Assembly (NCBI GenBank): GCA_947305745.1
Contig: CAMZEH010000005.1
Coordinates: forward strand, 5,339 to 69,338
DNA: 64,000 nt
DNA from: an uncultured Clostridia bacterium
GTDB taxonomy: Bacteria > Bacillota > Clostridia > Oscillospirales > Acutalibacteraceae
Direction of reading: 5' to 3'
The notes under the pieces were generated by a model, which was given only the letters and a program-made list of their open reading frames with translations, was not told where the DNA came from and ran no database searches. Position numbers and translations under genes: made by a program. Below, piece by piece: positions 15-37,499 of the stretch (positions are counted from its first letter, which is position 1; each line of letters begins with the position of its first letter).

Positions 15-89
15 TGGTGACTCGTATGGGAATCGAACCCATGTTACCGGCGTGAGAGGCCGGTGTCTTAACCGCTTGACCAACGAGCC
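15..89 (-). tRNA. tRNA-Glu (anticodon CUC)
   Basis: The reverse complement reads GGCTCGTTGGTCAAGCGGTTAAGACACCGGCCTCTCACGCCGGTAACATGGGTTCGATTCCCATACGAGTCACCA (75 nt). It has a 7-bp acceptor stem (one G-U), a GGTTCGATTCC T-arm, the anticodon stem CCGGC/GCCGG with loop CTCTCAC, and an encoded CCA. The scaffold matches Firmicute tRNA-Glu. Confidence 0.9.
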
Positions 90-1092: not shown

Positions 1093-1142
1093 CATCATTG
1101 TAAGCAGTTTTGCTTAAAACATTTTTAGGAGGTTTGATATTT

Positions 1143-1589
1143 ATGCGTATGGTTCCTTTTCATTCAAATGATTTATTCGGAGATTTTGATCTATCCGACC
1201 CGTTCAAAGGTCTATTCAAAACTTTGGATTCTTTACCGAGAGTTCCAAACGTTATGAATACGGACGTCGTGGAAAAAGATGGCAAGATCGAACTTATTAT
1301 GGACTTGCCAGGAGTGAAGAAAGAAGATATTGAGATTAAACTTGAAGAAGGCAATCTTATCATCAGCGCCTCGACAAGCGAAAGCAAATCTACGGAGGAA
1401 AAATCAGATAATACGAATTATATACGTAAAGAACGCCACAGCGGAAAATATACTAGAAGTTTTTATATCGGCGAACACATTACTTCTGAGGATATAAAAG
1501 CGAAATTCGAAAATGGTACGCTTGCACTTACGTTCCCAAAAGAAAAACCTAAAGAAATCCCGCAAAACAACATAATAAGTATTGAGTGA
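1143..1589 (+). CDS. Hsp20/alpha-crystallin family small heat-shock protein
   Basis: Alpha-crystallin domain (DLPGVKKEDIEIKLEEGNLIISA ... GKYTRSFYIGEHI ... AKFENGTLALTFPK). ATG 1143 follows AGGAGG (1127-1132). The ORF-track TTG start at 1110 has no RBS. Confidence 0.85.
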   Translation: MRMVPFHSNDLFGDFDLSDPFKGLFKTLDSLPRVPNVMNTDVVEKDGKIELIMDLPGVKKEDIEIKLEEGNLIISASTSESKSTEEKSDNTNYIRKERHSGKYTRSFYIGEHITSEDIKAKFENGTLALTFPKEKPKEIPQNNIISIE

Positions 1590-2975: not shown

Positions 2976-4682
2976 TTATTCTTCGCGGAAAATATTAAAT
3001 GCGCGCAGTAAATTGAGCGTACCATAGCCCCACTGTGGATTTGGATAATCTCTGTTTGCGTCGCGGTCACACCCTCGTATCAGAATTAGTCTGAGTCTAT
3101 TGCCCGTGAGGGCAAGGAAATTTCTTTCCACTATCGCCCACTGCATTAGCAGTGCCGCTGCACCCGCAGTAATTGCCGCAGCTACGCTCGTTCCACTCAT
3201 CTCTACAAAACCATTCGGGGAAACTCCCTCGACGTTCACTCCCGGCGCGGCGAAATCGGGCGAAAACTTCATTCCGACAGTAGGCCCCCAAGAGCTATTT
3301 ATATAAAGACTGCTTTCTATGCTATTATATGCACCGACGGCTATCGTTCCCATGGCGGTTGAAGGAATCACCGTTGTATAATTTGGTGTCGGCGCAACAA
3401 ACTCTATATCGGGACTCACAAACCCCGTCATCGGTAACCACGCTTGATACTCTCCGCTTATTATCAAATCGCCGTGGAGATTTATTTCCCACGTTCCCGG
3501 CACGACGTCCGTTATCTGCACTATCGCAAACCTACTTTCGTTTTGATGATATGCAATATTGACCGTAGAACGTTCAAATATCAGCTTTTTCTGATACGTC
3601 GTACCCACAAAAAACGGAATTTTATTTATTATTTCACCTGTTGGAGATTTTAGCGAAAACGAAATTTTATCCCAGCCCGAATACCATATATAAACGCTCA
3701 GAGTTTTCGCCTGTTCTCCCACGCGTACGGATATCGGCACAACATCGCCCTCCTTTTCCACAACCCCTTGCGTATGATGCCTGGCATTGCTCTCATTGCC
3801 CACTGCGGTAGATATAACCGTCCCAACCGAATTCGACAAAAACGATATATAGTTTTCCAGACGATTTTGCCCATTGTGTCCGCCGAAGTTTGTGCCGAGT
3901 GCGAGGCATATCGAGCATGGTCTCCCGAGAGCTCCCGCCTGCTCAAAGATAAACGACAGACCAAGCATTATATCAATTGAAATATATGCATTTTCCTGTT
4001 CGGGCGGGACTAAAAACTTTTTCAGATAAAACGGCGCCGCTTTTTTCAGTTTGACTACTATCAAATCGGCATCGGGCGCAGCTCCTATGAATTCGCCGTC
4101 TTGTCGACCCGCCGCGAGAGATGCAAGATACGTCCCGTGTCCATTCTCATCTTTATGCGGCACTATATTATATGGCTCTTCACTCCTAAGTGCTTCATTA
4201 ATCTGTTCGGCGGTATAAACCGTACCAAAATTCACACCGTAGTTTTGCGGTCCTTCTGCAGTTTGATCCCAAATATACTTAATTTTTGTCGTCCCGTCTT
4301 CGTATCTGAAAACGGGATTCGTGTAATCTATGCCGGTATCGACTATGCCTACAATCACGCCCGAGCCGGTAAGGTTTAAATACGGCTGCTGCTGTACGTC
4401 CGCTATACCACTTGCTTCGAGCGCCTCGGTAAAAGTCAGACCGTACACTTCCGGATAGGTATTTAGAAAATCCGAACCGAGCTCTTCGAAAATAGTTTCC
4501 ATATTTTCTTCATTTGTACACAAAATCGCAAGGTCATTAGATAGCACTTTAACGAGCCGTATATAAGGTTTATCGGCCAGATACGCCTGAAAAGAAGGCG
4601 TATACCAGGCGTAAAACGGAACCGTTGTCGGCAAAGCTATAAATTCATCGAGCGGCAGTAATATATCTTCTGAATTCGGCAT
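2976..4682 (-). CDS. S8 subtilisin-like serine protease, Csp (germination-specific protease) type
   Basis: Full catalytic triad: VGIVDTGIDY (Asp), NGHGTYLASLAAG (His), SGTSVAAAITAGAAALL (Ser). About 100-aa prodomain, no signal peptide, IWDQT motif, ~570 aa as in clostridial CspA/B/C. ATG 4682 follows AGGAGG. The ORF-track TTG at 4712 lies upstream of that RBS. Confidence 0.7.
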   Translation of the reverse strand: MPNSEDILLPLDEFIALPTTVPFYAWYTPSFQAYLADKPYIRLVKVLSNDLAILCTNEENMETIFEELGSDFLNTYPEVYGLTFTEALEASGIADVQQQPYLNLTGSGVIVGIVDTGIDYTNPVFRYEDGTTKIKYIWDQTAEGPQNYGVNFGTVYTAEQINEALRSEEPYNIVPHKDENGHGTYLASLAAGRQDGEFIGAAPDADLIVVKLKKAAPFYLKKFLVPPEQENAYISIDIMLGLSFIFEQAGALGRPCSICLALGTNFGGHNGQNRLENYISFLSNSVGTVISTAVGNESNARHHTQGVVEKEGDVVPISVRVGEQAKTLSVYIWYSGWDKISFSLKSPTGEIINKIPFFVGTTYQKKLIFERSTVNIAYHQNESRFAIVQITDVVPGTWEINLHGDLIISGEYQAWLPMTGFVSPDIEFVAPTPNYTTVIPSTAMGTIAVGAYNSIESSLYINSSWGPTVGMKFSPDFAAPGVNVEGVSPNGFVEMSGTSVAAAITAGAAALLMQWAIVERNFLALTGNRLRLILIRGCDRDANRDYPNPQWGYGTLNLLRAFNIFREE

Positions 4683-4838
4683 ATAAATCCTCCTAATATA
4701 AGAATTTTCCAAAATATGCTATGCAAGCGGTTTCATGCACTATAATATTACTAACTGCAAATGTAATTAATACGCCAAAAGTATCGCTTCTTCTAATTAA
4801 ACATGTTATAATAAAAAACAAAAACGGAGAATTAATTT

Positions 4839-5275: not shown

Positions 5276-7009
5276 TTAAATATATCCGTTGAAAATCCAT
5301 AATTCCTCCAAGGCGTCGTAAACACAGAGCGTTCCGTAGCCAAAACTATTATTTGGGTAATTTATTCTGCCGTTTCTCCGCGAACCTTTTTTTAGGTAAG
5401 CTTTTAATCTTTCGCCATATAAAAACGGGTCCCTCTGCTGTACGATGCCCCACTGCATGAGAAGTGCCGCCGCGCCCGAAACAAACGGCGCCGCCATACT
5501 CGTACCGCTAAAAAGTGAATATCCTCCACCCATAGACGGCGCAAGAATATCCACCGCCGGTGCGACCAAATCGGGCTTTGTGTAAACAACGCTCAAGGTG
5601 TATCCGCGGCCTGAAAAATCTGTTATTATGTTCCTCACAGAGTCATATCCACCGACTGTGATTACGTTTTGAGCCGTCCCGGGTATTGTAAGCGTTGCGT
5701 CGATTGACGGATTGACAAAACTTGTATCCGTTCCGACTTCTTCCACGGTCGGGAGATAAATATCATAGCTGCCCTCAACGATTTTTCTCGCTCTGACGCG
5801 TATTTTATATATTCCGATGGGCAATTGCCCTTCCACTGGGTCGATTTGAAAAAATATTTCCTGAAAAGTAGTATAAAACTTCGGCTGACCATAGCTTACA
5901 ACTATTCTTGCGTCGCCTATACGAAAATTCCTTACCCTATCAATATACGAAATCTCGCCCGTTGAGCGCCCGCTCGGAAGAATCAGCCCAACGGAGAAAT
6001 CATCCGCAAAATTTTTCCACATCGTAAGAAAAAACGAATTATTTTTACCCGAATAGAAAAATTCTATATTTTGAACTTCATCGTTTGAAATTTTGCCTGA
6101 ATAATGATGCCCCGCAGAACCTTCGTTACCCGCTGCCACCACTATCGATGTTTTCCATTTTTCCGCCATGCTATTTATATAAAGCTCAAAAAGCGACTGC
6201 CCGTTATGCGCGCCGTCGTTTGTGCCGTAACTTATGTTTATTACAAGCGGCAAACCAAACGCCAGAGCTTTATCAAGCGAATATTTAACAGCTCGCATAA
6301 GTTCTGTCGTCCTTGCAAAAGACGGGTATCCTTTTTCGCCAAGCTTTACGACTATAATTGAAGCATTCGGTGCAACTCCGACGTTTTCTCCGCCCGATGC
6401 CCTTCCGTTTCCCGCGGCAATCCCCGCCACAGCCGTTCCGTGCCCCATAATATCTACTTCAGGCACAAGAGAATATGGGTCATTCGACGAAAGAGCAGCG
6501 TTAATTTGCTCGTTTGTGTACTCTGCGCCCGACGTGAACCCCTGCGGAGGGTTGCCTTCGCCGGTCTGATCCCACATGCAAAGAATTCTGCTTGTTCCTT
6601 CCTCGTTTATGAAATCGGGGTGCGTATATTCTATCCCCGAATCTATTATCGCTACCGCAACGCCTTCGCCCGTAAGGTTATACCTGCCTACTCTCTGCAC
6701 TTCGGGTACACATGAACTTCTAACGCTTTCCTGGTAGCTAAGAGTGAGTATTTTTGGCGCTTCTACAGCCTCGACTTCCGTGAACTCCGTTAAGCGCGAA
6801 AGTTCGCTCAGCCGAAGCGTTATAATTGCAAAATTTTCGCTGAGAATCTCGGTTTCTACGCCGAGCTGACGCCCTACCGCCACAATATCGCCATTATATT
6901 TTACGATTACTTCCAGCGGCGCATCGCTAAAGCCGTAATACCCCGCAAGCGGAACGATATCGCTTTCGGAAATCACCGCTCTTCCCGGCACCAAACTCGA
7001 TAAAGACAT
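5276..7009 (-). CDS. S8 subtilisin-like serine protease, Csp (germination-specific protease) type
   Basis: Full triad: VAIIDSGIEY, MGHGTAVAGIAAG, SGTSMAAPFVSGAAALL. Prodomain with VIVKYNGDI, MWDQT motif, no signal peptide, 577 aa. GGAGG lies 7 nt upstream of the ATG. Confidence 0.7.
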   Translation of the reverse strand: MSLSSLVPGRAVISESDIVPLAGYYGFSDAPLEVIVKYNGDIVAVGRQLGVETEILSENFAIITLRLSELSRLTEFTEVEAVEAPKILTLSYQESVRSSCVPEVQRVGRYNLTGEGVAVAIIDSGIEYTHPDFINEEGTSRILCMWDQTGEGNPPQGFTSGAEYTNEQINAALSSNDPYSLVPEVDIMGHGTAVAGIAAGNGRASGGENVGVAPNASIIVVKLGEKGYPSFARTTELMRAVKYSLDKALAFGLPLVINISYGTNDGAHNGQSLFELYINSMAEKWKTSIVVAAGNEGSAGHHYSGKISNDEVQNIEFFYSGKNNSFFLTMWKNFADDFSVGLILPSGRSTGEISYIDRVRNFRIGDARIVVSYGQPKFYTTFQEIFFQIDPVEGQLPIGIYKIRVRARKIVEGSYDIYLPTVEEVGTDTSFVNPSIDATLTIPGTAQNVITVGGYDSVRNIITDFSGRGYTLSVVYTKPDLVAPAVDILAPSMGGGYSLFSGTSMAAPFVSGAAALLMQWGIVQQRDPFLYGERLKAYLKKGSRRNGRINYPNNSFGYGTLCVYDALEELWIFNGYI

Positions 7010-7055: not shown

Positions 7056-7850
7056 TTAATTTTTAATAGTTATAAATGCTGCGTTATTTCCGCGCTTACC
7101 TTGCGTCGCACGGTGCGAAAATAGCCAATCTTTATTGCAGCAGCTGCAAATATCCGACTTGACAATATTTTTTGAAGGCACACCAAAATTTTCCAGAATT
7201 CTTTTATTCGTTTCTTTGAGATCGATATTAAATTTGTTGTTTTTGTTTTTCTCAAAAGTCATTCCGAGGTTTAAAGCCTCAAATTCATTTTTTACACCTT
7301 CGCCCACTTCAAAGCAGCACTTACCAATACACGGCCCTAATGCGCACATGAGATTTTCTTTCTTACTGCCGAATTTTTCTGTAAAATTGCGAGCTAAATT
7401 TTCGGCAATTTTCGAAACCGTACCTCGCCAGCCTGCATGAGCAAGGCCAACGACTTTTTTAACGAGGTCGAACATATATACAGGGCAACAGTCGGCATGA
7501 GAAGTCTTTAAAACCACGCCCGGAATATCCGTTATAAAGCCATCCGCACCCGAAAAATTCAGATTTCCGCTCTTAACATCTTCATCTGTAATAATTTTAA
7601 TTTTGTTTCCGTGAATTTGCAGACTTCTAACCAGTTTTTTTCTATCGTAACCGAGAGCCAAACAGAAAATTTTATAGTTTTCTTCAATATTTTCCGGCGT
7701 TTCCGAACCCGAAAGATAAAAATTCATGGAACTGAATTCGTTTTTACTAACTCCGCCCAACCTCGTGGAAAAAGCGTGGCTTAAAAAAGGATACTGCTCA
7801 AATTTTTTAAACGTCAAATAGCCGACTTTATCGCTAAAATTTAAATTCAT
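7056..7850 (-). CDS. pgeF: Peptidoglycan editing factor PgeF / YfiH-family (DUF152) protein
   Basis: HADCCPVYMFD and GLAHAGWRG motifs, plus a C-terminal CSCC...F.SHR pattern typical of YfiH. The start is set at MNLNFSD (ATG 7850). The longer ORF-track start would run into the terminator of the upstream gene. Confidence 0.8.
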   Translation of the reverse strand: MNLNFSDKVGYLTFKKFEQYPFLSHAFSTRLGGVSKNEFSSMNFYLSGSETPENIEENYKIFCLALGYDRKKLVRSLQIHGNKIKIITDEDVKSGNLNFSGADGFITDIPGVVLKTSHADCCPVYMFDLVKKVVGLAHAGWRGTVSKIAENLARNFTEKFGSKKENLMCALGPCIGKCCFEVGEGVKNEFEALNLGMTFEKNKNNKFNIDLKETNKRILENFGVPSKNIVKSDICSCCNKDWLFSHRATQGKRGNNAAFITIKN

Positions 7851-7929: not shown

Positions 7930-7959
7930 AATAAAAACCCTGCCACACAAAGCAGCAGG
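7930..7959 (-). terminator. Rho-independent terminator closing the AAA+ operon
   Basis: On the minus strand: CCTGCTGC-TTTGT-GTGGCAGG (8 bp including two G-U pairs), followed by GTTTTTATT. Confidence 0.6.
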
Positions 7960-7975
7960 AATAAAGTACATATTT

Positions 7976-10306
7976 TTATTTGTCGGTTTCACTGTTCCGC
8001 TCGATGTAATCATTAATCTGATCAGCAGTGAGTGATGCCTCAGGATTAAGACTCTGCAGCTCTTTTGCTGCTTTGCTGTAATTATCGTATGAATCATATC
8101 CAAGCGGAAAAATTTTAAATTTAATCGTAAGCTTACCTGTGGAATCATGTGTTTCATAAGGTTTGGCAAGGAAAGTAAGTCCTTTATAGCTCTTGCCAGC
8201 ATTTTTAATCGCGGAAAACTCTTCAACAACAGATGAGTACAAGTTCCCACATACAGATCCCGTTTTACTGCCTCCGGCACCTACTATGGCTCTGGCAGCA
8301 TTTGGCATCTTCGCGGCATATTGAGCTATTTTCCTATAGTCAGCATCAGTTATCAACACACCGCCTATTCCCTCGCTGATACGTATAATCAAACTTACGT
8401 TATACGGCGAACTATGTTTGTTGTATTCCGCAACATTAGGTATACTCCTGATATCTTCGATAGCACTGCGAGCGATTTTCTCGTAATCGTCAACGGTTAA
8501 TTTATCAAAGTAGCATGTGCTATTAGCAAATCGCTGAGCTATAGAAGAGTCGTGCGGAACTAAAGTTTGCGTTCCGGAATCATCATCATATTTTGGCGTT
8601 ATATAGACAAAATCGCCACCGTCATCTATAACAGGTTTACCGGTATCATCACCTTTAATTTCCATCAATTTTCCTTGACTGGTTACTTTTACCCTACCTT
8701 GAAGCGAAGCGGACGTTTCATTCGTAGTACATATAAATACTAATCCGTTTAAGTCTATTGTGTTTCCGTAATGATCTTTTAATTCATTGTAATATATAGA
8801 CCTCAACACTTCGTCGAGTGGGTGTTCACTCGGATATTTGCCGTCATTTCCTTTTTTATAGATTTTATCGAACTCATCTAAAATTACAACTCTGACGTGA
8901 CCTTCGGTTGATTTTAAGTATGATGCCAATGTGTTTGACTCGCCGAGCAGCGATGATGTCGAGGTCCTGTCGGCTCCTTGTTTTGTGTTACTGTAGAGCA
9001 GTGCGTAAGGCATATCTCCATAACTATTTTTTGCAGCTTGCAACACATCGCCTGCTGTTAATACATAAGGTTTTATACTTGTTAATGATTCACTTAAGAG
9101 ATTAGCCATATATGTTTTTCCGGTGCCTGACGGCCCATTAAATATAAGCACTTTTGGTTCAGGAAGATCAGAAACATATGCTCCCATTTTTGCAGCTTTT
9201 CTTTCCGCAGAGAAACCAACAAAGAATGACATTATTTGCTCTTTAGCGCCTTTCTGACCATGAATTTCGTTATCAAATTTCTTTCTGAGCACTCTTTCTT
9301 CTTTTTCAGAATCGTATTTCTTTTCTGCTTCTTTTTGCATGTTCAGTTCGATAAGCTTTTCAGCTTCTTGCTTATACTGACCCAATTCCTTGGTTTGATA
9401 CCTGATCATATTTACATCATCGAAAAATTTACGAACTGAGGAAAAAGCACCTGTCGTTTTGGAAAGTAGCGTTGCTACACCACCGGCTGTTGTTGTCAAG
9501 GCACCGGTGAGTACCAAGCCTTCGGTTAATTTTTTTACAAACCCTTCTTTTTCTAAACGTTCTTTTTCGCTCAATAAATAATGCTGTGCGTTAAACTTTG
9601 CTTCTGGCGGCATTTTGTCGTTCCGCAATTCGTTTAGTGCTTTTTTGGTCTCCTCGAGTTCGTCACGATTCTTAATAGCTGCTTGGAAATTTCCTCCTAT
9701 TTTATCGCGTTGACCAACAAGAGCTGCGCCGCCCGTTATAAGTGCAGCTGAGGCTAACAAAATTTTTCCTTTATTATCCCAAATGGTATCCGCCAATTTA
9801 TTTAAAGTATTTAAAATCTTCGCACCTGTGGATATATTTTCAGGCGGTTCCTCGTCTTCTTGACTGCGGAGATCATCATATTTTTCACTAAATGATTTTT
9901 CATCACGAAGCTGAGAAAAGTTTGGATTTACATTTGATTCCGAAGTATCTTTGGCGTATATGTGAGCAGACGTCATAAACGAGAGAGAAGCTAAAGCTGA
10001 AGCCGCAATTCTTTGCATGACATTTGCCCCACCGGAAACTTCATTTAAAGCTTTTTCGCTGAGTTTTTTTATTTCATCATCACTGATTTTTTGAGCTTCC
10101 TCGGCCGCTTGTCCGATTTCATCAAGGCACATACAAACAAGCTGATCAAAAAACTCGCAAAACTCCTCAAAGGTGTATCCATCCTGGATAGTTTGGCAGA
10201 TTTTGTAAAGCTCAACCATATCATCAGTTACCATAATTTGATCAATTTTTGCTTCGTTATCAAAAATTTTTTCCATCAAAATATCTAAATTGGAATTATT
10301 AACCAT
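7976..10306 (-). CDS. Membrane-associated AAA+ ATPase (single ClpB-D2/torsin-like module) with N-terminal Nif11-like domain and double-glycine motif
   Basis: Walker A IFNGPSGTGKTY, Walker B VVILDEFDK, sensor-1 FICTTNE. A Lys/Glu-rich coiled-coil linker and hydrophobic segments precede the ATPase. The N-terminus ends ...KKLSEKALNEVSGG. The start is taken at MVNNSN (ATG 10306, AAGGA 9 nt upstream). The ORF-track TTG is at 10324. Confidence 0.7.
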   Translation of the reverse strand: MVNNSNLDILMEKIFDNEAKIDQIMVTDDMVELYKICQTIQDGYTFEEFCEFFDQLVCMCLDEIGQAAEEAQKISDDEIKKLSEKALNEVSGGANVMQRIAASALASLSFMTSAHIYAKDTSESNVNPNFSQLRDEKSFSEKYDDLRSQEDEEPPENISTGAKILNTLNKLADTIWDNKGKILLASAALITGGAALVGQRDKIGGNFQAAIKNRDELEETKKALNELRNDKMPPEAKFNAQHYLLSEKERLEKEGFVKKLTEGLVLTGALTTTAGGVATLLSKTTGAFSSVRKFFDDVNMIRYQTKELGQYKQEAEKLIELNMQKEAEKKYDSEKEERVLRKKFDNEIHGQKGAKEQIMSFFVGFSAERKAAKMGAYVSDLPEPKVLIFNGPSGTGKTYMANLLSESLTSIKPYVLTAGDVLQAAKNSYGDMPYALLYSNTKQGADRTSTSSLLGESNTLASYLKSTEGHVRVVILDEFDKIYKKGNDGKYPSEHPLDEVLRSIYYNELKDHYGNTIDLNGLVFICTTNETSASLQGRVKVTSQGKLMEIKGDDTGKPVIDDGGDFVYITPKYDDDSGTQTLVPHDSSIAQRFANSTCYFDKLTVDDYEKIARSAIEDIRSIPNVAEYNKHSSPYNVSLIIRISEGIGGVLITDADYRKIAQYAAKMPNAARAIVGAGGSKTGSVCGNLYSSVVEEFSAIKNAGKSYKGLTFLAKPYETHDSTGKLTIKFKIFPLGYDSYDNYSKAAKELQSLNPEASLTADQINDYIERNSETDK

Positions 10307-10413
10307 TGGCGACATTCCTTTCAAATTATTCTATTCATCCTCTTTCTATTATAATCAACCTAAACTAAAAAGTCAAGTAAAATAAGTTTATTTTATACAG
10401 TATTTGTTGTTTG

Positions 10414-11766
10414 TTACAGTAATTGTCTTGAAAATTCGTATTCACCGGTTTCATGGTTTTTTCCAAATAGTATTTTAACGTTTCTTCCATAATCCTTGCC
10501 CATTGTTTTCGCCATTAAACCTCTAATTTCATCTTCAAAAACATTTTTCAGTCTGCCTTGCATAATCTTATCGTTAAACATATCCTCAGCCATTGAATCA
10601 CGGATTTCTTCTTCGAAAATGACGTCAGCCAGCCTGAAAGGTCCCGCGGGCTCTTTTAAACTTTCGGTAATTTTTTCAATCATATCATCAACTATCGAGC
10701 GGCAGGCTTCCTTGGAAAGATGTTCGAATTCAATAATATTTAAGCGCTGTGCGCCACCGCCTTTTGTGCCGTCTATACCGAAATTTTTTTCAAGTTCTTG
10801 GTGTGTTTCATTGGTAGTGACAAGAAAAAGCGTCCTGGTACAATCGACTTCTTTATTCATAAACTTATATTTACCTGTGGAAGCTATCGAACGTAATATC
10901 TCATCAGCACTGTTGTCAACCGATGATGCCTCCTTCTGGCCTGGAATAGGCACACTGACACCCTGGATGTTCATAGTCGTCCCCGGTTTTGCACTTTTGA
11001 GCTTCATCTTATCATATTCATCAATAATTACAACAGATTCATACCATTGCAAGAGATGTTTAAGCATGGGAGATTCTTCATCTTTGGGGACAAGGCCGTC
11101 GCTACCAGTAAACCAGTTTTTTTGACGCTTTTCTCCTATATCTTTTGTCAAAATCGTTTTAAAAAGCTGCGTACCCAGCTCCGACTCAGACGTTATGCTC
11201 TCGCTATGGCAGAAAATACACGTTTTTTCAGAATGTTTTAAAAATGCGTCAGCAATGGCATAACACATTTTTGTTTTCCCCGTGCCGGATGGCCCGATTA
11301 TATAGATTATATTCCCACGCATATCTTTTTCGTCATATTTTCCGCGATTTAAATCGTCAACCCTTGCGGCAACACCGCTAAGAGCATTGAACATCTGTCG
11401 TTTCGCCCTTTGCTGACCGTATACACGAACTTCGGATTTACTATTACAAATATCCTCCAGCTTTTTTACTATTTCGGAAATTTCGCGAAATCCCGAGTAT
11501 TTATTAACTTCGCTGCGAGCCTTTGCGCTATCAATAAACCCATCGACGCGCATTATAATTTCACCAAGTATCCTTGGTACCATACTGGCTATCACGGAGC
11601 CGATAACTGAAACCAAAAGCCCGTTACCTTTTCCAATTTGCGCACTGCCGGTTACTGCCTGTGCATTTTCTTCTGCTTTTGTACCCGGCATCAAAATCGA
11701 TCTGCCACTAAAAATCAAACTAAACGCCAAAAATCCTGCCAAACATTTTCTCTTAAAAATTTTCAA
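10414..11766 (-). CDS. Membrane-tethered AAA+ ATPase (single ClpB-D2/torsin-like module)
   Basis: Signal/anchor MKIFKRKCLAGFLAFSLIFSG and a second hydrophobic helix LLVSVIGSVIASMVPRILGEII. Then VYGQQRAKRQMF, Walker A IIGPSGTGKTKM, Walker B VVIIDEYDK, sensor-1 LVTTNE. TTG start preceded by GGGGGA. Confidence 0.7.
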   Translation of the reverse strand: MKIFKRKCLAGFLAFSLIFSGRSILMPGTKAEENAQAVTGSAQIGKGNGLLVSVIGSVIASMVPRILGEIIMRVDGFIDSAKARSEVNKYSGFREISEIVKKLEDICNSKSEVRVYGQQRAKRQMFNALSGVAARVDDLNRGKYDEKDMRGNIIYIIGPSGTGKTKMCYAIADAFLKHSEKTCIFCHSESITSESELGTQLFKTILTKDIGEKRQKNWFTGSDGLVPKDEESPMLKHLLQWYESVVIIDEYDKMKLKSAKPGTTMNIQGVSVPIPGQKEASSVDNSADEILRSIASTGKYKFMNKEVDCTRTLFLVTTNETHQELEKNFGIDGTKGGGAQRLNIIEFEHLSKEACRSIVDDMIEKITESLKEPAGPFRLADVIFEEEIRDSMAEDMFNDKIMQGRLKNVFEDEIRGLMAKTMGKDYGRNVKILFGKNHETGEYEFSRQLL

Positions 11767-11862
11767 TCCTTTTCCCCCGTTAATATATCAAATTTTAAAA
11801 TCAATTGTTCCGAATAAGTATATTAACAAATTTTTAAGCAGAAATCAAGCAGGATTTACGGT

Positions 11863-13674
11863 TTATGAAATTTTTGTTATCTCAAATTTTATTTTATCAC
11901 CATCCAAATTGCAGATGATCTGCTCTTCACTTTTTAGCTTTCTTCTGATCATCAAGTCCGAAATTGGGTGTTCAATATTTTCCGTTATGATCTTATCGAT
12001 GGTTCTGGCACCGTATAAATTTTTTTCTTCAAAACTAAGCTTGCGTATATAAGCTACAACTTCATCGGGAATCTTGATCCCAATTCCGCCCGTGAAAAGT
12101 CTGTTTTCGAGGCCGGAAAGTTTCATCTTCACTATAGAATTATAATTTTCTTCCAAAAGATTATTGAAAAATATAACATTATCTATTTTTTTCTCTATAT
12201 TGTTATCAAAGTTATCAATAACGTTTTGTTTTAAAGAGTTTTCGACTGAATTTATGTTGCAATTTGCATCGCTCGAATTTACAACCATAATAACAATCGC
12301 ATTGGTAAAATCAACTTTTTTGCCCGAAAAATCAGTTAGAAAACCTCTGTCTAAAATTTCATATATAACGCTCAACTCAGCAGAATCTGCCGAGTTGATA
12401 TTATCAAACATAACCACGGAATAAGGATTTTTCATAATTTTTTCTATCAGCTCGCTCTTGCTTTCGCTCGAACCGACTAGATTTTTAAGCGAATGCTTAT
12501 ATCCGATGCCTAGCATATCAACACTTATAAAACTACCGATTTCTTCCCCAATCACTCTTGCAAGCTCGCTTTTGCCTACTCCGGGAGGTCCTACAAACAT
12601 AAAAGAAGCTCTGGGTTTATTCTCATCACAGAATCCCAAACGGCTCCTCTTCACCGCTGAACAGACAATATCGACGGCGTGATCTTGCCCTATGACAAAT
12701 TTTTTCACTCGATTATTCATAGTTTCCAGCGCTTCGGCTTCATCTGCCGACAAATCACCGATCGGTATATTTGTTACTTCGGATATAGCGTCTATAACAT
12801 CACCTCGTTTAACTTGACATATATCTCCTTTTGACTTTTTCTGTGCGGTTACCAAAGCTAAATTAAGTATATCTACCGCTTTGTTGGGGTAAAATTTATT
12901 TTTCATATATCTTCCGGTGAGATTTACGATATCCATAAGCACTTCGTCAAATATTTTTACATGTTGTTTTTTTTCGGCATCGCTCTTTAAATACTTGAGT
13001 ATCCTAAAAGTATCAAATTTATTGGGCTCTTCCAAAAAGATATATGTATAATCTTGAGCAAAAGCATCATTTTTCATCATTTGAGTGTATTGTTCGTCCG
13101 TCGCCGAAACTATAATTTTTATATCTCCTTTATCGAGATACGTTTGTATAAGTTCCAAAACGCCGGGGATTTGTGATATTTGATAGATATTATCAATAAA
13201 CAAAATAATATCTTTATCCGATTTAGCGTTATTCAAAATAGCTCTCAAGCGAGTCAATATACTACCTTTTACTCCGCTTTTCCCAACAATGAGTTTGGCG
13301 ATATTGACTTTAAATATCTTTTTGTTTTTCATGTTTTCAGAAACATTATCGTGAGCAATTCTATACGCCAATCCCTCAACAAGTGCCGTTTTCCCGACAC
13401 CTTTGCCCCCGACTATACATGGGTTACTTTTCTCACTCAGTAAAAGTATATCGGTCAAATTTTCAATTTTGTCATCGCGCGTGAAAAAGTCGTGATACTC
13501 ACCACTTCGTGCTTTTTCGGTCATATTTTCGCAGTATTCGGACATAACAAAATATCTGTCGGCATCAAAAAAGCCCGATGCAGCGATAACCTCATATAAA
13601 GGCTTTGCAGTCATAGAACTAATGGTATTGAGGATCGTCGAAAACAAAATAGTTAAAATCAAAATTCCCACCAT
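11863..13674 (-). CDS. Membrane-anchored ClpB/ClpA-like two-ring AAA+ protein, predicted hydrolysis-deficient
   Basis: N-terminal TM MVGILILTILFSTILNTISSM. D1 has GGKGVGKTALVEGLAYRI and D2 has VIGQDHAV ... FVGPPGVGKSELARVIG, both collinear with ClpB D1/D2. The N-domain and M-domain are absent. Walker B reads ILFIDNIY and VVMFDNIN (DN, not DE). AAGGAG RBS lies 9 nt upstream of the ATG. Confidence 0.75.
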   Translation of the reverse strand: MVGILILTILFSTILNTISSMTAKPLYEVIAASGFFDADRYFVMSEYCENMTEKARSGEYHDFFTRDDKIENLTDILLLSEKSNPCIVGGKGVGKTALVEGLAYRIAHDNVSENMKNKKIFKVNIAKLIVGKSGVKGSILTRLRAILNNAKSDKDIILFIDNIYQISQIPGVLELIQTYLDKGDIKIIVSATDEQYTQMMKNDAFAQDYTYIFLEEPNKFDTFRILKYLKSDAEKKQHVKIFDEVLMDIVNLTGRYMKNKFYPNKAVDILNLALVTAQKKSKGDICQVKRGDVIDAISEVTNIPIGDLSADEAEALETMNNRVKKFVIGQDHAVDIVCSAVKRSRLGFCDENKPRASFMFVGPPGVGKSELARVIGEEIGSFISVDMLGIGYKHSLKNLVGSSESKSELIEKIMKNPYSVVMFDNINSADSAELSVIYEILDRGFLTDFSGKKVDFTNAIVIMVVNSSDANCNINSVENSLKQNVIDNFDNNIEKKIDNVIFFNNLLEENYNSIVKMKLSGLENRLFTGGIGIKIPDEVVAYIRKLSFEEKNLYGARTIDKIITENIEHPISDLMIRRKLKSEEQIICNLDGDKIKFEITKIS

Positions 13675-13704: not shown

Positions 13705-15384
13705 TCAAAAATTTTTTAACACTTTATATACCGCATTAACAAGCGAATTAATGGCTTTTTCTCTTTCTAAGGCACTGCTTGATTTTATCATTACATAAAA
13801 CTTAATTTTCGGTTCCGTGCCTGACGGTCTGACTATAATTTTCATACTGTTTTCCAATTCGATTTCCAAAACATCCGATTTTAGCGTGCCTTTAAAATTC
13901 AGATAATCTTTCTTGTTTTTGATATTGTAATTCCCGATGCTATCTAAGCTTTTATTCCGAAAATAATGCATGATGTAGCCTGTGGATATTTCTGGGCTAA
14001 TTTCTTTAAGATTATAACTGAGCGTTTTCTCACCGAAATAACCGTATTTTGAGTAAAGCTTCTCGAGAATTTCTGCTAAATTTTTACCGAATTTTTCTTT
14101 ATAGTACGCTGCCGCCTCGCACACAATCAGCGAAGCCGAAACGGCATCTTTATCACGGACATAGCTACCGCATAAATACCCGTTGCTTTCTTCAAAGCCG
14201 AATAAATAATCATCAGCGCGATTCGAACTTTCTAAATCGGCGATTTCATGCGCAATATTTTTAAACCCCGTCAAAACGTTTCGAACCTCACACCCATACG
14301 ATTTCGCGATCTCCTCAGCCATCATCGTGCTTACTATCGTTTTAACTATCACGCCGTTTTTTGGTAGCGTTTTATAATTTTTCCGCCGCTCTAAAATATA
14401 ATTGGTAAGAAGTATTCCGATCTCATTTCCGCTCAGCAGTTTATACTCATCGCCACTTCTTACGCAGACTCCGAGTCTGTCTGCGTCGGGATCCGTTGCC
14501 AAAATCAAATCGAAATTCCCCGTTTTGGCTGTTTTCAACGCCTCATTAAATGCCGAAATATTTTCGGGGTTTGGGTATGGGCAAGTCGTAAAATTTTCAT
14601 CGGGGTTTTCCTGGACTTTTACAACCGATAAATTTTTTATTCCAGCCGCCTCCAAGGCTTTTCGGACGAATTTATTGCCCGTGCCGTTCAGGGGCGTATA
14701 AAGAACTTTTATATTGCCTAATGAAACTGTTTCTCGCCTATATTTTAAAATCTCATTTATATAGTCTTTTTTCAAAGAATCATCCGTGAAACTAATCACT
14801 CCATCAGCTATCCCCTCAGAAAGCTCTATGCGTTTTACGTCTTTAAACATGTCCGCTTTTTGGATATATTCATAAACTCTGCTCGCAAATTCCTCATTCA
14901 TCTGAGCACCATCATTGCCGTAGCATTTATATCCGTTATATTCCGCAGTATTATGGCTCGCTGTAATCATTATGCCGGCGTCGGTTTTAAGACTCCTCAC
15001 CAGGTACGATAAAAACGGCGTAGGTGTAAGCTCCTTTGTGATATATGATTTTACGCCGTTCGCCGCCATGACGCACGCAACTTCTTCCGCAAATTTTTTC
15101 GAATTCCTCCTACAATCGTATGAAATCGCCACAGAAGGAGTTTTATGCTTTTCGAGCAGGTAATTTGCAAGTCCTTGCGTGGCCTTTCTGACAGTATAGA
15201 TGTTAATGCGGTTATTTCCCGCCTCCATCAAGCCCCTGAGACCCGCCGTACCAAATTTAATATCCTCGCCAAACCTATCTTCAATCTCATTTTTATTATT
15301 TTTAATCAAGATAAGCTCATTTTTAGTTACTTCGTCGCTTACGTTTTCAATCCATGAATTAAAATTTTTCTCGGCGCTACTCAA
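13705..15384 (-). CDS. pgcA: Phosphoglucomutase / phospho-sugar mutase
   Basis: Active-site loop TASHNTAEYNGYK, metal loop TDPDADRLG, sugar loop GFEESNG. The start is taken at the second TTG (15384), 9 nt after AGGGGG. The ORF-track TTG at 15414 lacks an RBS. Confidence 0.85.
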   Translation of the reverse strand: MSSAEKNFNSWIENVSDEVTKNELILIKNNKNEIEDRFGEDIKFGTAGLRGLMEAGNNRINIYTVRKATQGLANYLLEKHKTPSVAISYDCRRNSKKFAEEVACVMAANGVKSYITKELTPTPFLSYLVRSLKTDAGIMITASHNTAEYNGYKCYGNDGAQMNEEFASRVYEYIQKADMFKDVKRIELSEGIADGVISFTDDSLKKDYINEILKYRRETVSLGNIKVLYTPLNGTGNKFVRKALEAAGIKNLSVVKVQENPDENFTTCPYPNPENISAFNEALKTAKTGNFDLILATDPDADRLGVCVRSGDEYKLLSGNEIGILLTNYILERRKNYKTLPKNGVIVKTIVSTMMAEEIAKSYGCEVRNVLTGFKNIAHEIADLESSNRADDYLFGFEESNGYLCGSYVRDKDAVSASLIVCEAAAYYKEKFGKNLAEILEKLYSKYGYFGEKTLSYNLKEISPEISTGYIMHYFRNKSLDSIGNYNIKNKKDYLNFKGTLKSDVLEIELENSMKIIVRPSGTEPKIKFYVMIKSSSALEREKAINSLVNAVYKVLKNF

Positions 15385-15459
15385 TTTAAAAATCCCCCTA
15401 AAATTAGTCGTCAAGGGGATTTTAACACATTATAAAATACTGTTCAATCGGCTTTTTAT

Positions 15460-16482: not shown

Positions 16483-16526
16483 ATAATAAATATTGGTTTT
16501 GAGCGATTATTGTGGAGGAAATGCGT

Positions 16527-19500
16527 ATGAAAAAGATTTTCTATAATCTAAAACTCGCAAATTCAAAATTTATTTGGTGCATTGCCGCGCTTTTTATGAT
16601 ACTCTCTTTTGCCGTTAAAGTTGATTGTACCGACGGATTTAGTAAAAGCATAATAGCTTTGCCTAAAGCCGAAAATGGCATAGAAAAAATAGAATATATA
16701 GTGAACGGCGAAGCAAAAGGCAGCACGGATGGTGTAGACTCTATCGAACTCGAGGCCGGTGCTAAAATTACTTTCGCCGTTAAATTCGAGTCCGAAGGAT
16801 ACGGGAAGTTACACGTCAGAAATGTCAAAATAAAATCCGAAAACGGCTCTGTTCTGAGGTTCAATACCTATGCAAAAGATGATGAAGGCAATTTTGTACT
16901 TATGAGAGTCGAGGACAGCGCACCCATAAATCCCGATCAAACTTACGTTTCTTCCGATTACATTGTAAGAAAAGATGACAAGCTTTCTTTTGAAGGCATA
17001 GAAGAGGACAAATACCTCGTCAAGATCGCCGATGAAAATAATGATGTAAACCTTTCCGATGCGGTAAAGCTCAAATATGCCGAAAACGGCGGAAACTACA
17101 TCGAGGCGGAATTTTCAGAGGGAGAAAACGCATTTTTAATAAATAATCTCACAAAAAGCTCAAACGTAAAGCTGATGTTCGAATTCACGGAAGGTTATAC
17201 AAATTCGGATCTATCTTTGGTAAATTCTGAAAATCAAATAGCAATAGATACAAAATCAAAAATATGCACCCTCCCACAGCTCAAAGGCGACATTGATTTA
17301 GAAATAAGAAATCTGAAAAAAAACAGCTATAGTGTTACTTTTAATGAATATTCAAACGCTAAATTTTCGTACAGAATTGCAGGCTCAGACGACGAATTTA
17401 CATCTTCTGAAATTTTAAAAGTGAACTACGGTGACTGTCTGGAAATTAAATGTGCCACAAGCAGTGATGATATCCTTAAATCGGGCGATGTGACGGCAAA
17501 CGGTAAAGTTATAGCAAAAAATAACGGTATATATACTTTGGAGAACATAAAAGATCACTACAGCATAGCAATTACGCCAAAAGTAAATGCTATATACACA
17601 ATTTCGCTCCCCGAAAATGAAGACAGAATAAAACTTTGTGATACCTTTGGCAATGAAGTTTCCGAAATTAACGCAAAGCAAAATGATTCCGTAGACCTTA
17701 AAATTATTCCGAGCGACGCATACAGCAAAAACTTTATCTTAGCCGAAATGTACGCTGTACCAATGAGCAAACTCACGAACGGCAACTATGATATATACGC
17801 CGACCCCGAAGAAGCAAAATCATTTTTGCTGCTGCCCTCCGGCGATTTCCTCTACACGCTTAAAAACATTAACGAACCTGTGAAAATCATCGCCGGTAAA
17901 ATGGATAAAAACATTTATACCGTAACGCTGCCCGAAAAAATAATCGGCGCAAATGCGCAGATCGAGCCAAGCGAAAATATAACACAAATTACCGAAAATA
18001 AATTCAAAGTTGTTCACGGAATGGATTTGGTAGTAAACCTCGAAGCACAAGCAGGTTATGATTTGTCCACAATAAACGCGAGCGATGTGGATAATTCCGT
18101 TGAAGTCAAGAAAGATGGTAATAAATACACATTTAAAAATATCGACAGCGACAAATATATAATAATAAACGGAGCTTCGGCATCTTCATGCAAAGTTTCG
18201 TTTGACGGTAATGATATAGTCGCGACAAGCGAAAATGGACACACATGGGAAAATAACAGCGCCTCGATAAAATATCAAGAAGGCACACTGAAATTTAAGG
18301 TGCGTCCCGCCGATAACGCAGGCAATCCGAACGAAGACATTCCGCTGAGCATAAAATCTGGCAGCGGAAAACTCGAAAAAATTTCTTCGGAAAAAAATAT
18401 GTATTCACTGAGCGGGGTTACGGATAACATCGTTCTCAGCGCGAATAGAGCGCAAAGCTCCGACGTTACGATAGCTCTCAAATCTGACGATGATGACATA
18501 CAATTTACTGATGCAGATGACGAAAATATCATTCTCCCCGAAGAAAACACTGTAAAATACGGCACTGATCTCAAATTTAAAGTCCTTTCAAAAAGCGGAA
18601 GAAGCACAGACAATGCTTCGATTATGTCCAGCGTTTCAAATCCCATCACACCGAGCGATACTTCTTCAAATACATTTTCGGTCACTGCGCTACGTTCCGG
18701 AACAACTCTCGCCAATACAAGAGAAACCGCTAAAACGGGGCATTATGTAGACCTATGTGAAAATATTTATTCGCCCGATTCCCCCTCCTCTGCAAAAGCA
18801 TATTCCGGAGTGGCATCTTTTTCAATGGAACAGGCAATCCCTTTGCCGTTGGTTGTACTAAGTAAAGATCCCGAGGCTTGCGAATGTATAAACCAACCGG
18901 AAAAAATCCAGCTTTCCCCAACGGGTACCGACCCAACCTTGATGGTAAACGATCCTAACTATAAGTTAATAGAAACAGGCGAAACACCGGAAGAAAACTT
19001 GTATGAGTCGGAGCTAATCTTACCCCAGATCTTATATGGCAACACGGTACTGGATAACCAAAAATTCAAATTAAACTTTAAAATAAGTCATTACACGATC
19101 ATAGGTGGGGACACGGCGTCAAGCGGATATCCGACACAAGTGTTGTTCGTGAAAGAGATACTTCAAGGAAAAAGCGGCGCAAATGACGTGGAGCGCGTTA
19201 TACCAAGTACTGACGCAGCTGTTCCGGCTACGGCAATAAGCGAAAAAACCACAGGAGATTACTATGCGCAAAAAACCATAGATGAATACACTCCTGACGG
19301 TTCCTCAGCCTTACAATATTTACCCGATTGCTATTGTCAAGGATTTGGAGTTTTATATAAATGGGTATCACTGGACAGAAATCTCGATTATGATGTTAAT
19401 CATCAGTCAACACTCGAATATAAAGACTTAGATAATATTTCCTCTGATTTTAATATAACAACATATTCTCCCGATTACGACAGTGATAATTATGCGAGGT

Positions 19501-37316: not shown

Positions 37317-37384
37317 AATTTTCCCCCTTAAATCGACATAAACATAATATATCATTTCGGAGCGATAAGCAAAAACATAAATAT

Positions 37385-37423: not shown

Positions 37424-37499
37424 CGAGGTGTAGCTCAGCTGGTAGAGTGCTTGGTTTGGGACCAAGATGCCGCAGGTTCGAGTCCTGTCACCTCGACCA
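37424..37499 (+). tRNA. tRNA-Pro (anticodon UGG)
   Basis: CGAGGTGTAGCTCAGCTGGTAGAGTGCTTGGTTTGGGACCAAGATGCCGCAGGTTCGAGTCCTGTCACCTCGACCA (76 nt). C1-G72 pair, anticodon stem CTTGG/CCAAG with loop TTTGGGA, GGTTCGAGTCC T-arm, encoded CCA. Confidence 0.9.

Follow-up and report, generated by a model that had tools for sequence, protein, structure and literature searches.

What do three adjacent relatives of the Clp unfoldases do for a bacterium that seems to attach them to its membrane? Hsp100/Clp machines are among the best-studied protein unfoldases, yet three consecutive genes in a contig from an uncultured member of the Clostridia (family Acutalibacteraceae; GenBank assembly GCA_947305745.1, contig CAMZEH010000005.1) encode Clp-like AAA+ proteins that match no known Clp architecture. 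We analyzed the 64-kb stretch around these genes (positions 5,339 to 69,338 of the contig), which we will call the window; coordinates below are positions in the window unless they are given with the name of another locus. We will call the three genes, which all lie on the minus strand, A, B, and C. We infer that their products act in remodeling or extraction of polypeptides near the membrane, possibly in connection with proteins that have double-glycine (GG) leaders.

Three adjacent genes encode unusual AAA+ proteins

Gene A (13674-11863, minus strand) encodes 603 amino acids. It is a two-ring protein similar to ClpB or ClpA, with a hydrophobic helix at its N terminus, and we predict that it is a pseudo-ATPase. 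Gene B (11766-10414, minus strand) encodes 450 amino acids, with two N-terminal hydrophobic helices and then one AAA+ module that resembles the second ring (D2) of ClpB and has a full catalytic set. Gene C (10306-7976, minus strand) encodes a leader-like N-terminal module, hydrophobic segments, a linker that is rich in Lys and Glu, and another ClpB-D2-like AAA+ module. The longest open reading frame for C begins with TTG at 10324 and has 782 codons, but the ATG at 10306, which gives 776 amino acids, is favored by a ribosome-binding site (AAAGGA) 9 nt upstream and by the public annotation (P0235, 776 amino acids).

The three genes are tightly spaced and share a strand and a single terminator at the end. 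The terminator-like hairpin (7960..7938, minus strand) has a 9-bp stem with 5 G-C pairs, is followed by a T-run, and lies 16 nt past the stop codon of C. Upstream, 30 nt from A, is a gene for a phosphoglucomutase/phosphomannomutase (PGM; 13705-15414, minus strand) with all four PGM_PMM domains from Pfam. An earlier, sequence-only reading of this DNA had described three minus-strand genes following pgcA, with a terminator at 7930-7959. The open reading frames and the PGM gene bear this out, and the terminator is close to where it was placed; the length of C had been given as 777 residues instead of 776.

That reading had also assigned all three proteins to the Clp/Hsp100 clade with non-canonical architectures, and we agree. 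The Pfam model AAA_2 (PF07724, gathering score 27 bits) gives 79.3 bits for A, 30.8 for C, and 22.9 for B, which is below the threshold; by fold, all three have D2-like modules. No curated whole-protein model covers any of the three architectures: the best NCBIfam match of A is ClpA (TIGR02639, 366 bits with a cutoff of 993), followed by ClpB (TIGR03346, 346 bits with a cutoff of 1232). Public records describe the homologs of A, B, and C as "AAA family ATPase," "ATP-dependent Clp protease ATP-binding subunit," or "hypothetical protein." As the earlier reading had suspected, no characterized bacterial system matches: we found no curated family, structure, or description that corresponds to the trio in Pfam, NCBIfam, PADLOC, searches of sequences and folds from PDB, or the literature that we searched. 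The features of A, B, and C are not due to chance, because each protein has a conserved family and because the cluster recurs in at least five other lineages.

Protein A has lost the catalytic and threading residues of both rings

Pfam identifies the domains AAA (the first ring, D1), AAA_lid_9, AAA_2, and ClpB_D2-small in A. HMMER aligns A to ClpB and Hsp104 chains (E = 1e-77), with D1, AAA_lid_9, D2, and D2-small in collinear order. The M-domain of ClpB (about 130 residues, at roughly 400-530) has no counterpart: residue 275 of A aligns to about residue 399 of ClpB, and residue 289 aligns to 532. ClpA is the best NCBIfam model because it also lacks the M-domain, and the alignment of A to ClpA is one continuous stretch. 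There is no Pfam match in A to Clp_N (PF02861), which is present in all of the canonical ClpB proteins among its homologs. Also, the segment of D2 between sensor 1 and the arginine finger (SSDANCNINSVENSLKQNVIDNF) does not contain the IG(F/L) tripeptide of the ClpP-docking loop; its best alignment is to the segment of ClpB, which is longer. So A is like ClpB and Hsp104 in having two AAA+ modules with Walker A motifs and no ClpP-docking loop. It is unlike them in that a hydrophobic helix takes the place of the N-domain and in that the M-domain is missing, and it is unlike ClpA and ClpC in lacking both Clp_N and the IG(F/L) loop. The earlier reading had described the same ClpB-like pair of rings, without N-domain or M-domain.

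We read the motifs of A from the HMMER alignments to ClpB and Hsp104 chains and from a MAFFT alignment of 39 sequences (coordinates are on the minus strand). Both P-loops are kept, while both Walker B glutamates, all of the arginine fingers, and both pore-loop tyrosines are gone, which distinguishes A from ClpB and Hsp104 in each ring. The Walker A motif of D1 is intact (GGKGVGKT at 13387-13410; GEPGVGKT in ClpB). The pore-loop position of D1 reads GKSGVKGS (13261-13284), with GVKGSI for the KYRGEF of ClpB and no aromatic residue. The Walker B motif reads LFIDNIY (13183-13203), with FIDNIY for FIDELH, so that the catalytic Glu is replaced by Asn. The arginine-finger position reads FAQDYTY (13042-13062) where ClpB has LERRFQK, so ERRF has become AQDY.

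D2 has changed in similar ways. Walker A is again intact (GPPGVGKS at 12568-12591; GPTGVGKT in ClpB). The pore-loop region reads VGSSESKSE (12451-12477): relative to the ClpB loop GAPPGYVGYEEGG, which is shortened here to GSSESKSE, six residues are deleted. Walker B reads VMFDNIN (12394-12414), with MFDNIN for the LLDEVE of ClpB, and the catalytic Glu is again Asn. At the arginine-finger position, IEKKIDN (12178-12198) replaces FINRIDE, which changes the Arg to Lys. Sensor 1 (Asn) and sensor 2 (GAR) of D2 are retained. The sequence-only reading had listed the two DN motifs, the change of RRF to QDY, and the missing pore-loop aromatics; all of these are real in both sets of alignments. The shortened D2 pore loop, the Arg to Lys change, and the retained sensors of D2 are additions to that list. 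Given these residues, we predict, as was proposed earlier, that A binds nucleotide but neither hydrolyzes it nor threads polypeptides.

Is A simply a decaying gene? The ratio of nonsynonymous to synonymous substitution rates (dN/dS) between A and its orthologs in two other loci (L001 and L007) is 0.07-0.15, with synonymous sites that are saturated. With the same saturation, the ratio is 0.07 for the adjacent PGM gene and at most 0.09 for B. These ratios, together with an intact reading frame in at least 13 orthologs, rule out a decaying pseudogene. Because A is under strong purifying selection, we consider it to be a pseudo-ATPase.

The two rings of A were inactivated at different times

About 36-37 proteins, with lengths of 594-642 amino acids, share the architecture of A, including the N-terminal hydrophobic helix. 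In every member of this family, D2 lacks the Walker B Glu (the motif is DN, DG, or DK) and its pore loop is shortened or deleted. D1 varies within the family. Distant members (36-43% identity) have a fully canonical D1, with IDEFHQ, ALERRF, and the pore loop AGKAYNNG, which contains Tyr. In the near clade (45% identity or above), D1 lacks the Glu, both arginines, and the Tyr. Because D2 is dead throughout the family and D1 is dead only in the near clade, D2 is an old non-hydrolyzing ring, and the inactivation of D1 is recent and specific to that clade. The earlier description of A as dead in both rings therefore holds for the protein in the window; for the family, it holds for D2 only. In several members with a dead D1 (P0004, P0006, P0014, and P0029), the Thr/Ser of the D1 Walker A motif is also replaced (GVGKK, GVGKC, or GVGKN), and nucleotide binding by D1 may be dispensable in these proteins.

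A dead D1 is confined to the sub-clade in which A has C, and in most cases B too, as a neighbor. The presence or absence of an adjacent C coincides with the state of D1 in 8/8 lineages: D1 is dead where C is beside A (the window, L001, L002/3, L007/8, and L024), and it is intact in all three lineages with A alone (L004-6, L022, and L023).

Nucleotide-binding modules that do not hydrolyze are known as assembly or scaffold elements beside active modules, as in D2 of NSF, D1 of Pex1/Pex6, and the delta subunits of clamp loaders. D2 of A, which is dead throughout the family, is consistent with such a role. Unlike those proteins, A of the near clade has no active module left in its polypeptide.

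B and C retain a complete catalytic set

In B, the Walker A motif is GPSGTGKT (11272-11295), Walker B is VIIDEYDK (11008-11031), and the arginine-finger motif is GGGAQRL (10741-10761), with an invariant R341. In C, the corresponding motifs are GPSGTGKT (9113-9136), VILDEFDK (8864-8887), and IAQRFAN (8522-8542), with an invariant R592 (all on the minus strand). Among 114 homologs of B, the GQxxAK box, K164 of Walker A, D249 of Walker B, N319 of sensor 1, the arginine finger (GGGAQR341), and sensor 2 (QxR405) are invariant, and E250 is conserved in at least 90%. Among 16 homologs of C, the equivalent residues K397, E478, N529, R592, and R672 are invariant. Walker A, Walker B, sensor 1, the arginine finger, and sensor 2 are thus intact in both proteins. 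The two families are paralogs (hhalign probability 99.7%, E = 2e-25).

The AlphaFold model of B has an average confidence (pLDDT) of 82.5. The model of C has an overall pLDDT of 66.5, but its AAA+ region (residues 330-776) is confident. In Foldseek searches, the closest structures to these predicted models are the D2 rings of ClpC, ClpC1, and ClpA and the isolated second nucleotide-binding domain (NBD2) of ClpB. E-values reach 1e-14 for B and 2e-11 for C, and the TM-score to ClpB NBD2 is 0.6-0.67. The top 50 PDB matches are to ClpC, ClpA, ClpB, ClpX, or Skd3. When profiles were compared with PDB sequences, the best E-value was 1e-8 for B (to ClpC1) and 6e-7 for C (to Lon, Skd3, and ClpB). By fold and by profile, B and C belong to the Hsp100-D2/HCLR clade of AAA+ proteins. 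Motifs, hydropathy, and predicted structures all agree with the earlier view of B and C as single D2-like modules with intact Walker motifs and hydrophobic anchors ahead of them. They fold like NBD2 of ClpB, but they are single rings with membrane anchors.

The pore loops of B and C are less clear. The motif FLYGN is conserved only in the near clade of C, and the corresponding region of B (KDIGEKRxKN) lacks the canonical aromatic-hydrophobic-Gly motif; this region aligns poorly in both proteins.

The family of B and C is rare. Among 1.84 billion cluster representatives, a profile of the B family found 34 hits with E ≤ 1e-30, 126 with E ≤ 1e-10, and 440 with E ≤ 1e-3.

All three proteins have putative membrane anchors

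We identified hydrophobic segments from Kyte-Doolittle hydropathy with a 19-residue window. In A, residues 1-19 (MVGILILTILFSTILNTIS; 13618-13674, minus strand) form a putative transmembrane helix with a hydropathy of 2.05, which is conserved across the A family. This single helix has no charge ahead of it. An N-out/C-in orientation would leave the ATP-binding domains of A in the cytoplasm.

Residues 8-67 of B (11566-11745, minus strand) are a predicted membrane hairpin, from hydropathy and from the secondary structure of the AlphaFold model. The two helices (residues 8-26 and 49-67) have hydropathies of 1.73 and 1.90. MKIFKRK precedes the first helix, and a 22-residue loop lies between them. 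AlphaFold places helices at residues 2-19 and 50-90, with disorder at 20-51, and the second helix runs as one long helix into the ATPase module. The sequence-only reading had taken the first helix for a Sec-like signal. It is simpler to regard it as the first arm of an in-out-in hairpin, with the ATPase on the cytoplasmic side, than as a cleaved signal.

C has three hydrophobic segments, with hydropathies of 1.25-1.60. Residues 100-118 (IAASALASLSFMTSAHIYA; 9953-10009) form a signal-peptide-like helix that is rich in Ala and Ser. Residues 180-198 (9713-9769) are a putative transmembrane helix that follows an invariant NKGK motif. Residues 263-281 (9464-9520; all three on the minus strand) are a hydrophobic segment rich in Gly, Thr, and Ala, at the position of the second helix of B. 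Distant C-type proteins have a strong middle helix (up to 2.5) with a highly basic N-flank (such as KKSFWQRHKKK; typically 4-6 Lys/Arg and 0-1 Asp/Glu), which, by the positive-inside rule, would place the leader on the cytoplasmic side. In that case, the linker rich in Lys and Glu would be outside, and the third segment would return inward, mirroring the hairpin of B. Overall, hydropathy and the positive-inside rule suggest that the ATPase domains of B and C are cytoplasmic.

We also noticed by eye a juxtamembrane resemblance between the three proteins (GFFDAD in A, GFIDSA in B, and KFFDDV in C), which we did not use as evidence.

C begins with a module that resembles a double-glycine leader

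C39 peptidases recognize hydrophobic residues at positions -4, -7, and -12 before Gly-Gly, in the pattern L(-12)xxxxL(-7)xxV(-4)xGG, and gut Clostridia are known to have Nif11-type leaders and a broad-specificity C39 protease (PMC6363468). Residues 1-93 of C (10028-10306, minus strand) resemble a Nif11 or double-glycine leader and end with L(-12)SEKAL(-7)NEV(-4)SGG, with the Leu, Leu, Val, and Gly-Gly where the rule has them. This signature is present in 28/31 C-type proteins, as compared to 2/120 proteins from a set of A and Clp controls and 2/114 B-type controls. All 16 homologs of C have an N-terminal domain with the invariant GG, and the Ala/Ser-rich helix lies right after it.

Curated models detect these leaders only below their cutoffs. 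The N terminus of C scores 15.6 bits against TIGR01847 (bacteriocin_sig, cutoff 15.7), and full-length C scores 14.1 bits. The N terminus of C has no match to Nif11 models in Pfam or NCBIfam, including TIGR03798 (cutoff 32.3). The leaders of two distant C-type proteins score 21.9 and 14.3 bits against TIGR03798, which is also under the cutoff, and align to positions 5-68 of the 68 in the profile. The layout of C recurs in distant proteins: about 16 of the 86 long distant representatives from the B-profile search have a leader of 70-105 residues that ends with LxxV(S/A/T)GG, then a signal-like helix, then a basic patch and a strong transmembrane helix, with Walker A at 314-450. The sequence-only reading had treated the leader of C as a separate matter. 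Its presence was correctly noticed, but its conservation makes it a hallmark of the C-type branch, and it resembles Nif11 and double-glycine leaders. C ends its leader with the same recognition pattern as the substrates of PCAT transporters, but in place of a peptide its "cargo" is an AAA+ ATPase with about 680 residues and membrane anchors.

Small proteins with similar leaders are encoded on the plus strand in the window, at 1745-2053 (SLENISGG), 2197-2508 (SLENVSGR), and 2608-2937 (SLKNASGG; this one also has a sub-threshold match to CD225/dispanin, with 22.9 bits versus 27.1). They are paralogs of 102, 103, and 109 amino acids, with a Gly/Ala-rich helix (G..C.IA.AVY..KA) and a C-terminal hydrophobic segment. 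The same family is found at the same syntenic position in L001 (12712-13251) and L024 (17745-20031), and other small GG-leader proteins are encoded near solitary B genes in L013 and L016. When we compared a hidden Markov model of residues 1-122 of C to 1,844 open reading frames from all of the loci, the next hits after the true orthologs of C were precisely these small GG proteins (E = 3e-5 to 0.7). The small proteins in the window are possible clients or partners of the trio. A gene for a small heat-shock protein of the HSP20 family (1110-1589, plus strand) adjoins them, and this adjacency is kept in L007 and L024.

At L013 (2179-3467), four proteins of 85-106 amino acids have short acidic double-glycine leaders (...EEKVSGG) and Cys-rich cores that resemble zinc ribbons (CDICRK...CLDCAHKK). 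These would be unusual cargo, as they would be folded and metal-binding.

The trio is recurrent but not obligatory

The homologs are from metagenome-assembled genomes that are labeled as Clostridia, Acutalibacteraceae, Oscillospiraceae, or Eubacteriales, and that derive from human and animal gut metagenomes. The order PGM-A-B-C is found in the window, in L001, in L002/3 (where the contig begins at A), and in L007/8. L024 has PGM-A-C and no B. L015 has PGM-C and no A, with a B-like gene 6 kb upstream; it also has a type I restriction-modification system 5 kb from C. In L004-6, L022, and L023, the order is giant protein-M14-PGM-A-IspE, with no B or C, and these A proteins have the intact D1. B is found alone, with unrelated neighbors, in L009, L011, L013, L016, and L021. 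So the trio is a recurrent unit but not an obligatory one. PGM beside A (or C) is the most persistent feature and, apart from L002/3, whose contig begins at A, it is seen in all of the lineages that we examined.

Some of these loci came from broader scans. A scan of reference genomes with the B-family alignment confirmed at least two loci. A scan of metagenomes with a trimmed alignment that did not include Walker A found at least four loci, and we used L021, because the rest were too short. When we searched a plasmid collection with a distant C-type protein, the only hit was a 27%-identical AAA ATPase from Mesomycoplasma, so the family is not plasmid-borne in that collection.

Neighboring genes

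The gene upstream of PGM encodes an M14 peptidase, and beyond it is a divergent open reading frame of 1998 codons (16512-22508, plus strand). The giant protein has a signal-like segment at its N terminus and a hydrophobic anchor at its C terminus, and it has no Pfam match with E ≤ 0.001. Giant genes (1917-2070 amino acids) are at the same divergent position beside the M14 peptidase in L001, L004, L007, L022, L023, and L024.

Directly downstream of C is a gene for a Cu-oxidase_4 protein, similar to YfiH/PgeF (7056-7850), followed by an S8 protease with a CspB prodomain (5276-7009) and a second S8 protease (2976-4712), all on the minus strand. This block follows C in the window, L001, L007, L015, and L024, but not in L002 or L003. 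The Csp-type proteases point to a spore-forming organism. Elsewhere in the window, tRNA genes at 18-89 (minus strand) and 37424-37496 (plus strand) are the only Rfam matches, and there is an open reading frame of 1131 codons at 33960-37355 (minus strand). No ClpP gene adjoins the trio.

Within the gap between B and C is a promoter-like site, TTGACT-17-TATAAT (10348-10376, minus strand). It matches 11 of 12 consensus positions and is the strongest sigma-70-like match of the region; it is identified by its match to the consensus only. C may be transcribed on its own from this internal site.

Solitary B genes have diverse neighbors. Beside B in L013 (11565-21305) are a secreted vWA-like protein (with DxSxS), a SipW-type signal peptidase of 152 amino acids (SGSMEP), and at least nine tandem paralogs of 257-280 amino acids that have TasA/SipW-type signal peptides (KKRFWLGMAGCALV...AYFSSSH) and no Pfam annotation. 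This looks like a large gene array for a fiber or pilus-like structure. In L011 (7544-14547), B is beside an S26 signal peptidase that is fused to a polytopic membrane domain (386 amino acids), a DUF5305 protein, and a beta-helix protein of more than 3300 amino acids. In L016 (6220-9981), a small Ras/Roc-like GTPase, an RHS-repeat protein with a hydrophobic C-terminal region, and a 210-amino-acid protein precede B, which is flanked by two GG-leader peptides. The neighborhood may be of the toxin-immunity type.

What does the trio do?

Our best explanation, which we hold tentatively and at a little under even odds, is that A, B, and C are a membrane-anchored set from the Hsp100 clade (HslU/ClpX/ClpAB-D2/Lon) that remodels or extracts polypeptides at the cytoplasmic face of the membrane. 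B and C would be the motors. As a working model for them, we take FtsH, Msp1/ATAD1, and Bcs1, in which an N-terminal transmembrane anchor is followed by an AAA+ ring whose entry lies beside the bilayer. By analogy with FtsH or Msp1, the hairpin anchors of B and C would press the N-terminal, substrate-entry face of each ring to the bilayer, and, as in FtsH, Msp1, and Bcs1, the motors would pull on membrane-embedded or secretory polypeptides. (FtsH, Msp1/ATAD1, and Bcs1 are from the classical AAA clade, while B and C are from the Hsp100-D2/HCLR clade and have no fused protease domain.) Since both rings of A are dead, any activity must come from separate proteins. A would be a nucleotide-binding, non-hydrolyzing ring or scaffold that organizes or tethers the motors, with its D2 as an assembly ring like D2 of NSF, and it would have become fully inert once C and B were encoded alongside it. 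A C39-type double-glycine peptidase could dock onto the leader of C or cleave it, or else the leader could be a removable regulatory prodomain. The leader might thereby connect the trio with proteins that have GG leaders, and the small membrane proteins encoded nearby would be examples.

Several observations weigh against this explanation. First, the variable gene sets (A alone in three lineages, B alone in five, A-C in L024, and C without A in L015) make an obligate A-B-C complex unlikely, and they leave the heteromeric machine that the earlier reading had hypothesized not established. Second, a single evolutionary event probably lies behind the association of a dead D1 with an adjacent C. 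Third, given the promoter-like site between B and C, the trio may not be co-transcribed. Fourth, threading by B and C is uncertain: the canonical aromatic pore loop could not be aligned confidently in B, and it is not a conserved feature of the C family. Fifth, the topology of C is ambiguous from hydropathy, AlphaFold, and flanking charges. Sixth, there is no gene for a C39 peptidase or PCAT transporter in the window or in any of the loci that we fetched. Finally, strict-pattern GG open reading frames are not significantly enriched near B or C (9 in 259 kb, versus 1 in 66 kb around A-only loci), and the single one from the A-only loci directly adjoins A in L023. Because of this last result, a link between the small GG proteins and the trio is still a hypothesis.

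The main rival explanation is that A, B, and C are independent homo-oligomeric membrane enzymes that are neighbors through inherited synteny, and that A has an ATP-independent or binding-only role. This would explain why each type of gene is found without the others in other lineages and why there is a promoter-like site before C. It also fits with the conservation of the whole block, from the giant protein, M14 peptidase, and PGM to the Cu-oxidase_4 and Csp genes, as a core-genome arrangement. However, independence does not predict that the loss of D1 would track the presence of C in all eight lineages, and the compact layout of the three genes on one strand with one terminator also argues against it. 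A two-ring protein that is fully dead and yet constrained is easier to explain if it has active partners. We consider independence possible, but on the unlikely side.

Another explanation is that the trio is an accessory of PCAT-type peptide export or immunity: a C39 protein would recruit or activate C via its leader, and the motors would unfold, deliver, or clear membrane-active peptides with GG leaders. The conserved leader of the C-type proteins suggests this, as do the small GG-leader proteins near B or C genes in the window, L001, L013, L016, and L024, the similarity of those proteins to the N terminus of C, and the broad-specificity C39 protease and Nif11-type leaders of gut Clostridia (PMC6363468). 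But all of the leader models are below their cutoffs, many B-type genes have no GG neighbor, and neither the missing C39/PCAT genes nor the insignificant enrichment, with a GG frame beside an A-only locus, would be expected. We doubt that this is correct. We have similarly low expectations for a bolder version, in which the C-type proteins are themselves clients of C39/PCAT peptidases, the leader docks the motor on the exporter or inhibits it until it is cleaved, and A is an obligate scaffold.

Given the link to the Csp proteases, the motors might act in sporulation or germination, for instance by assembling or activating the cortex-lytic machinery. The block of Cu-oxidase_4 and CspB-type genes after C in five loci and the M14 peptidase upstream are consistent with this. 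Yet L002 and L003 keep A-B-C without the Csp block, and the solitary B genes have unrelated neighbors, and we think a role of this kind is possible but very unlikely. This idea names a process rather than a mechanism, and it can coexist with membrane-proximal remodeling.

A role in anti-phage defense, related to Dodola (whose DolB is ClpB-like) or to other AAA+ defense modules, is highly improbable. PADLOC reports matches to DolB for all three proteins (E = 5e-18, 8e-10, and 3e-8) and weak matches to IetA or mad8, and the restriction-modification system of L015 is close to C. But the matches to DolB span only the generic D2 module, and PADLOC finds no DolA-like partner. Rather than in variable islands, the genes lie in a conserved core-genome block, with housekeeping genes alongside in each lineage, and they are absent from the plasmid collection that we searched. 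This conserved context, together with the lack of a partner gene, makes Dodola-like defense unlikely.

Least credible of all is a bacterial version of torsin and LAP1, in which an incomplete ATPase is activated by the arginine finger of a dead AAA+-like partner: the layout that led the sequence-only reading to compare the trio to torsins is indeed alike (a signal-like hydrophobic anchor and one D2-like module beside an inert AAA+-like protein, as for torsin with LAP1/LULL1), and there are weak matches to the Torsin model from Pfam (PF06309; 17.4 bits for A, 19.0 for C, and none for B), but these are under the 27-bit cutoff, no torsin is among the top 50 fold matches or the top 60 sequence matches, torsin is a lumenal ATPase that has no arginine finger and is supplied with one, while B and C are predicted to be cytoplasmic and have kept their own invariant arginine fingers (R341 and R592), sensor-2 arginines, and GKT P-loops, and A, which has no arginine fingers, cannot donate one.

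Implications for the Hsp100/Clp family

A, B, and C are new architectural variants of a very well-known superfamily, and the trio defines an uncharacterized kind of membrane AAA+ system. To our knowledge, all of the characterized bacterial members of the Hsp100/Clp family are soluble; by its predicted anchors, this locus points to a membrane-anchored branch of the family. A is a natural two-ring Hsp100 protein that lacks catalytic and threading residues, and yet its sequence is under constraint as strong as that on a housekeeping enzyme. The D1 ring of A died in the lineages where active paralogs came to adjoin it, which makes the family a natural experiment in how a pseudo-ATPase originates. 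A bacteriocin-type leader on a large ATPase would widen the range of clients, or the regulatory uses, of double-glycine peptidases. If the C-type proteins do prove to be clients of C39 peptidases, then the trio would be the first AAA+ unfoldase or dislocase dedicated to membrane-active proteins with GG leaders, for their delivery, quality control, or self-immunity. It would also be a bacterial counterpart of the eukaryotic membrane AAA+ systems that pair active subunits with pseudo-enzymes.

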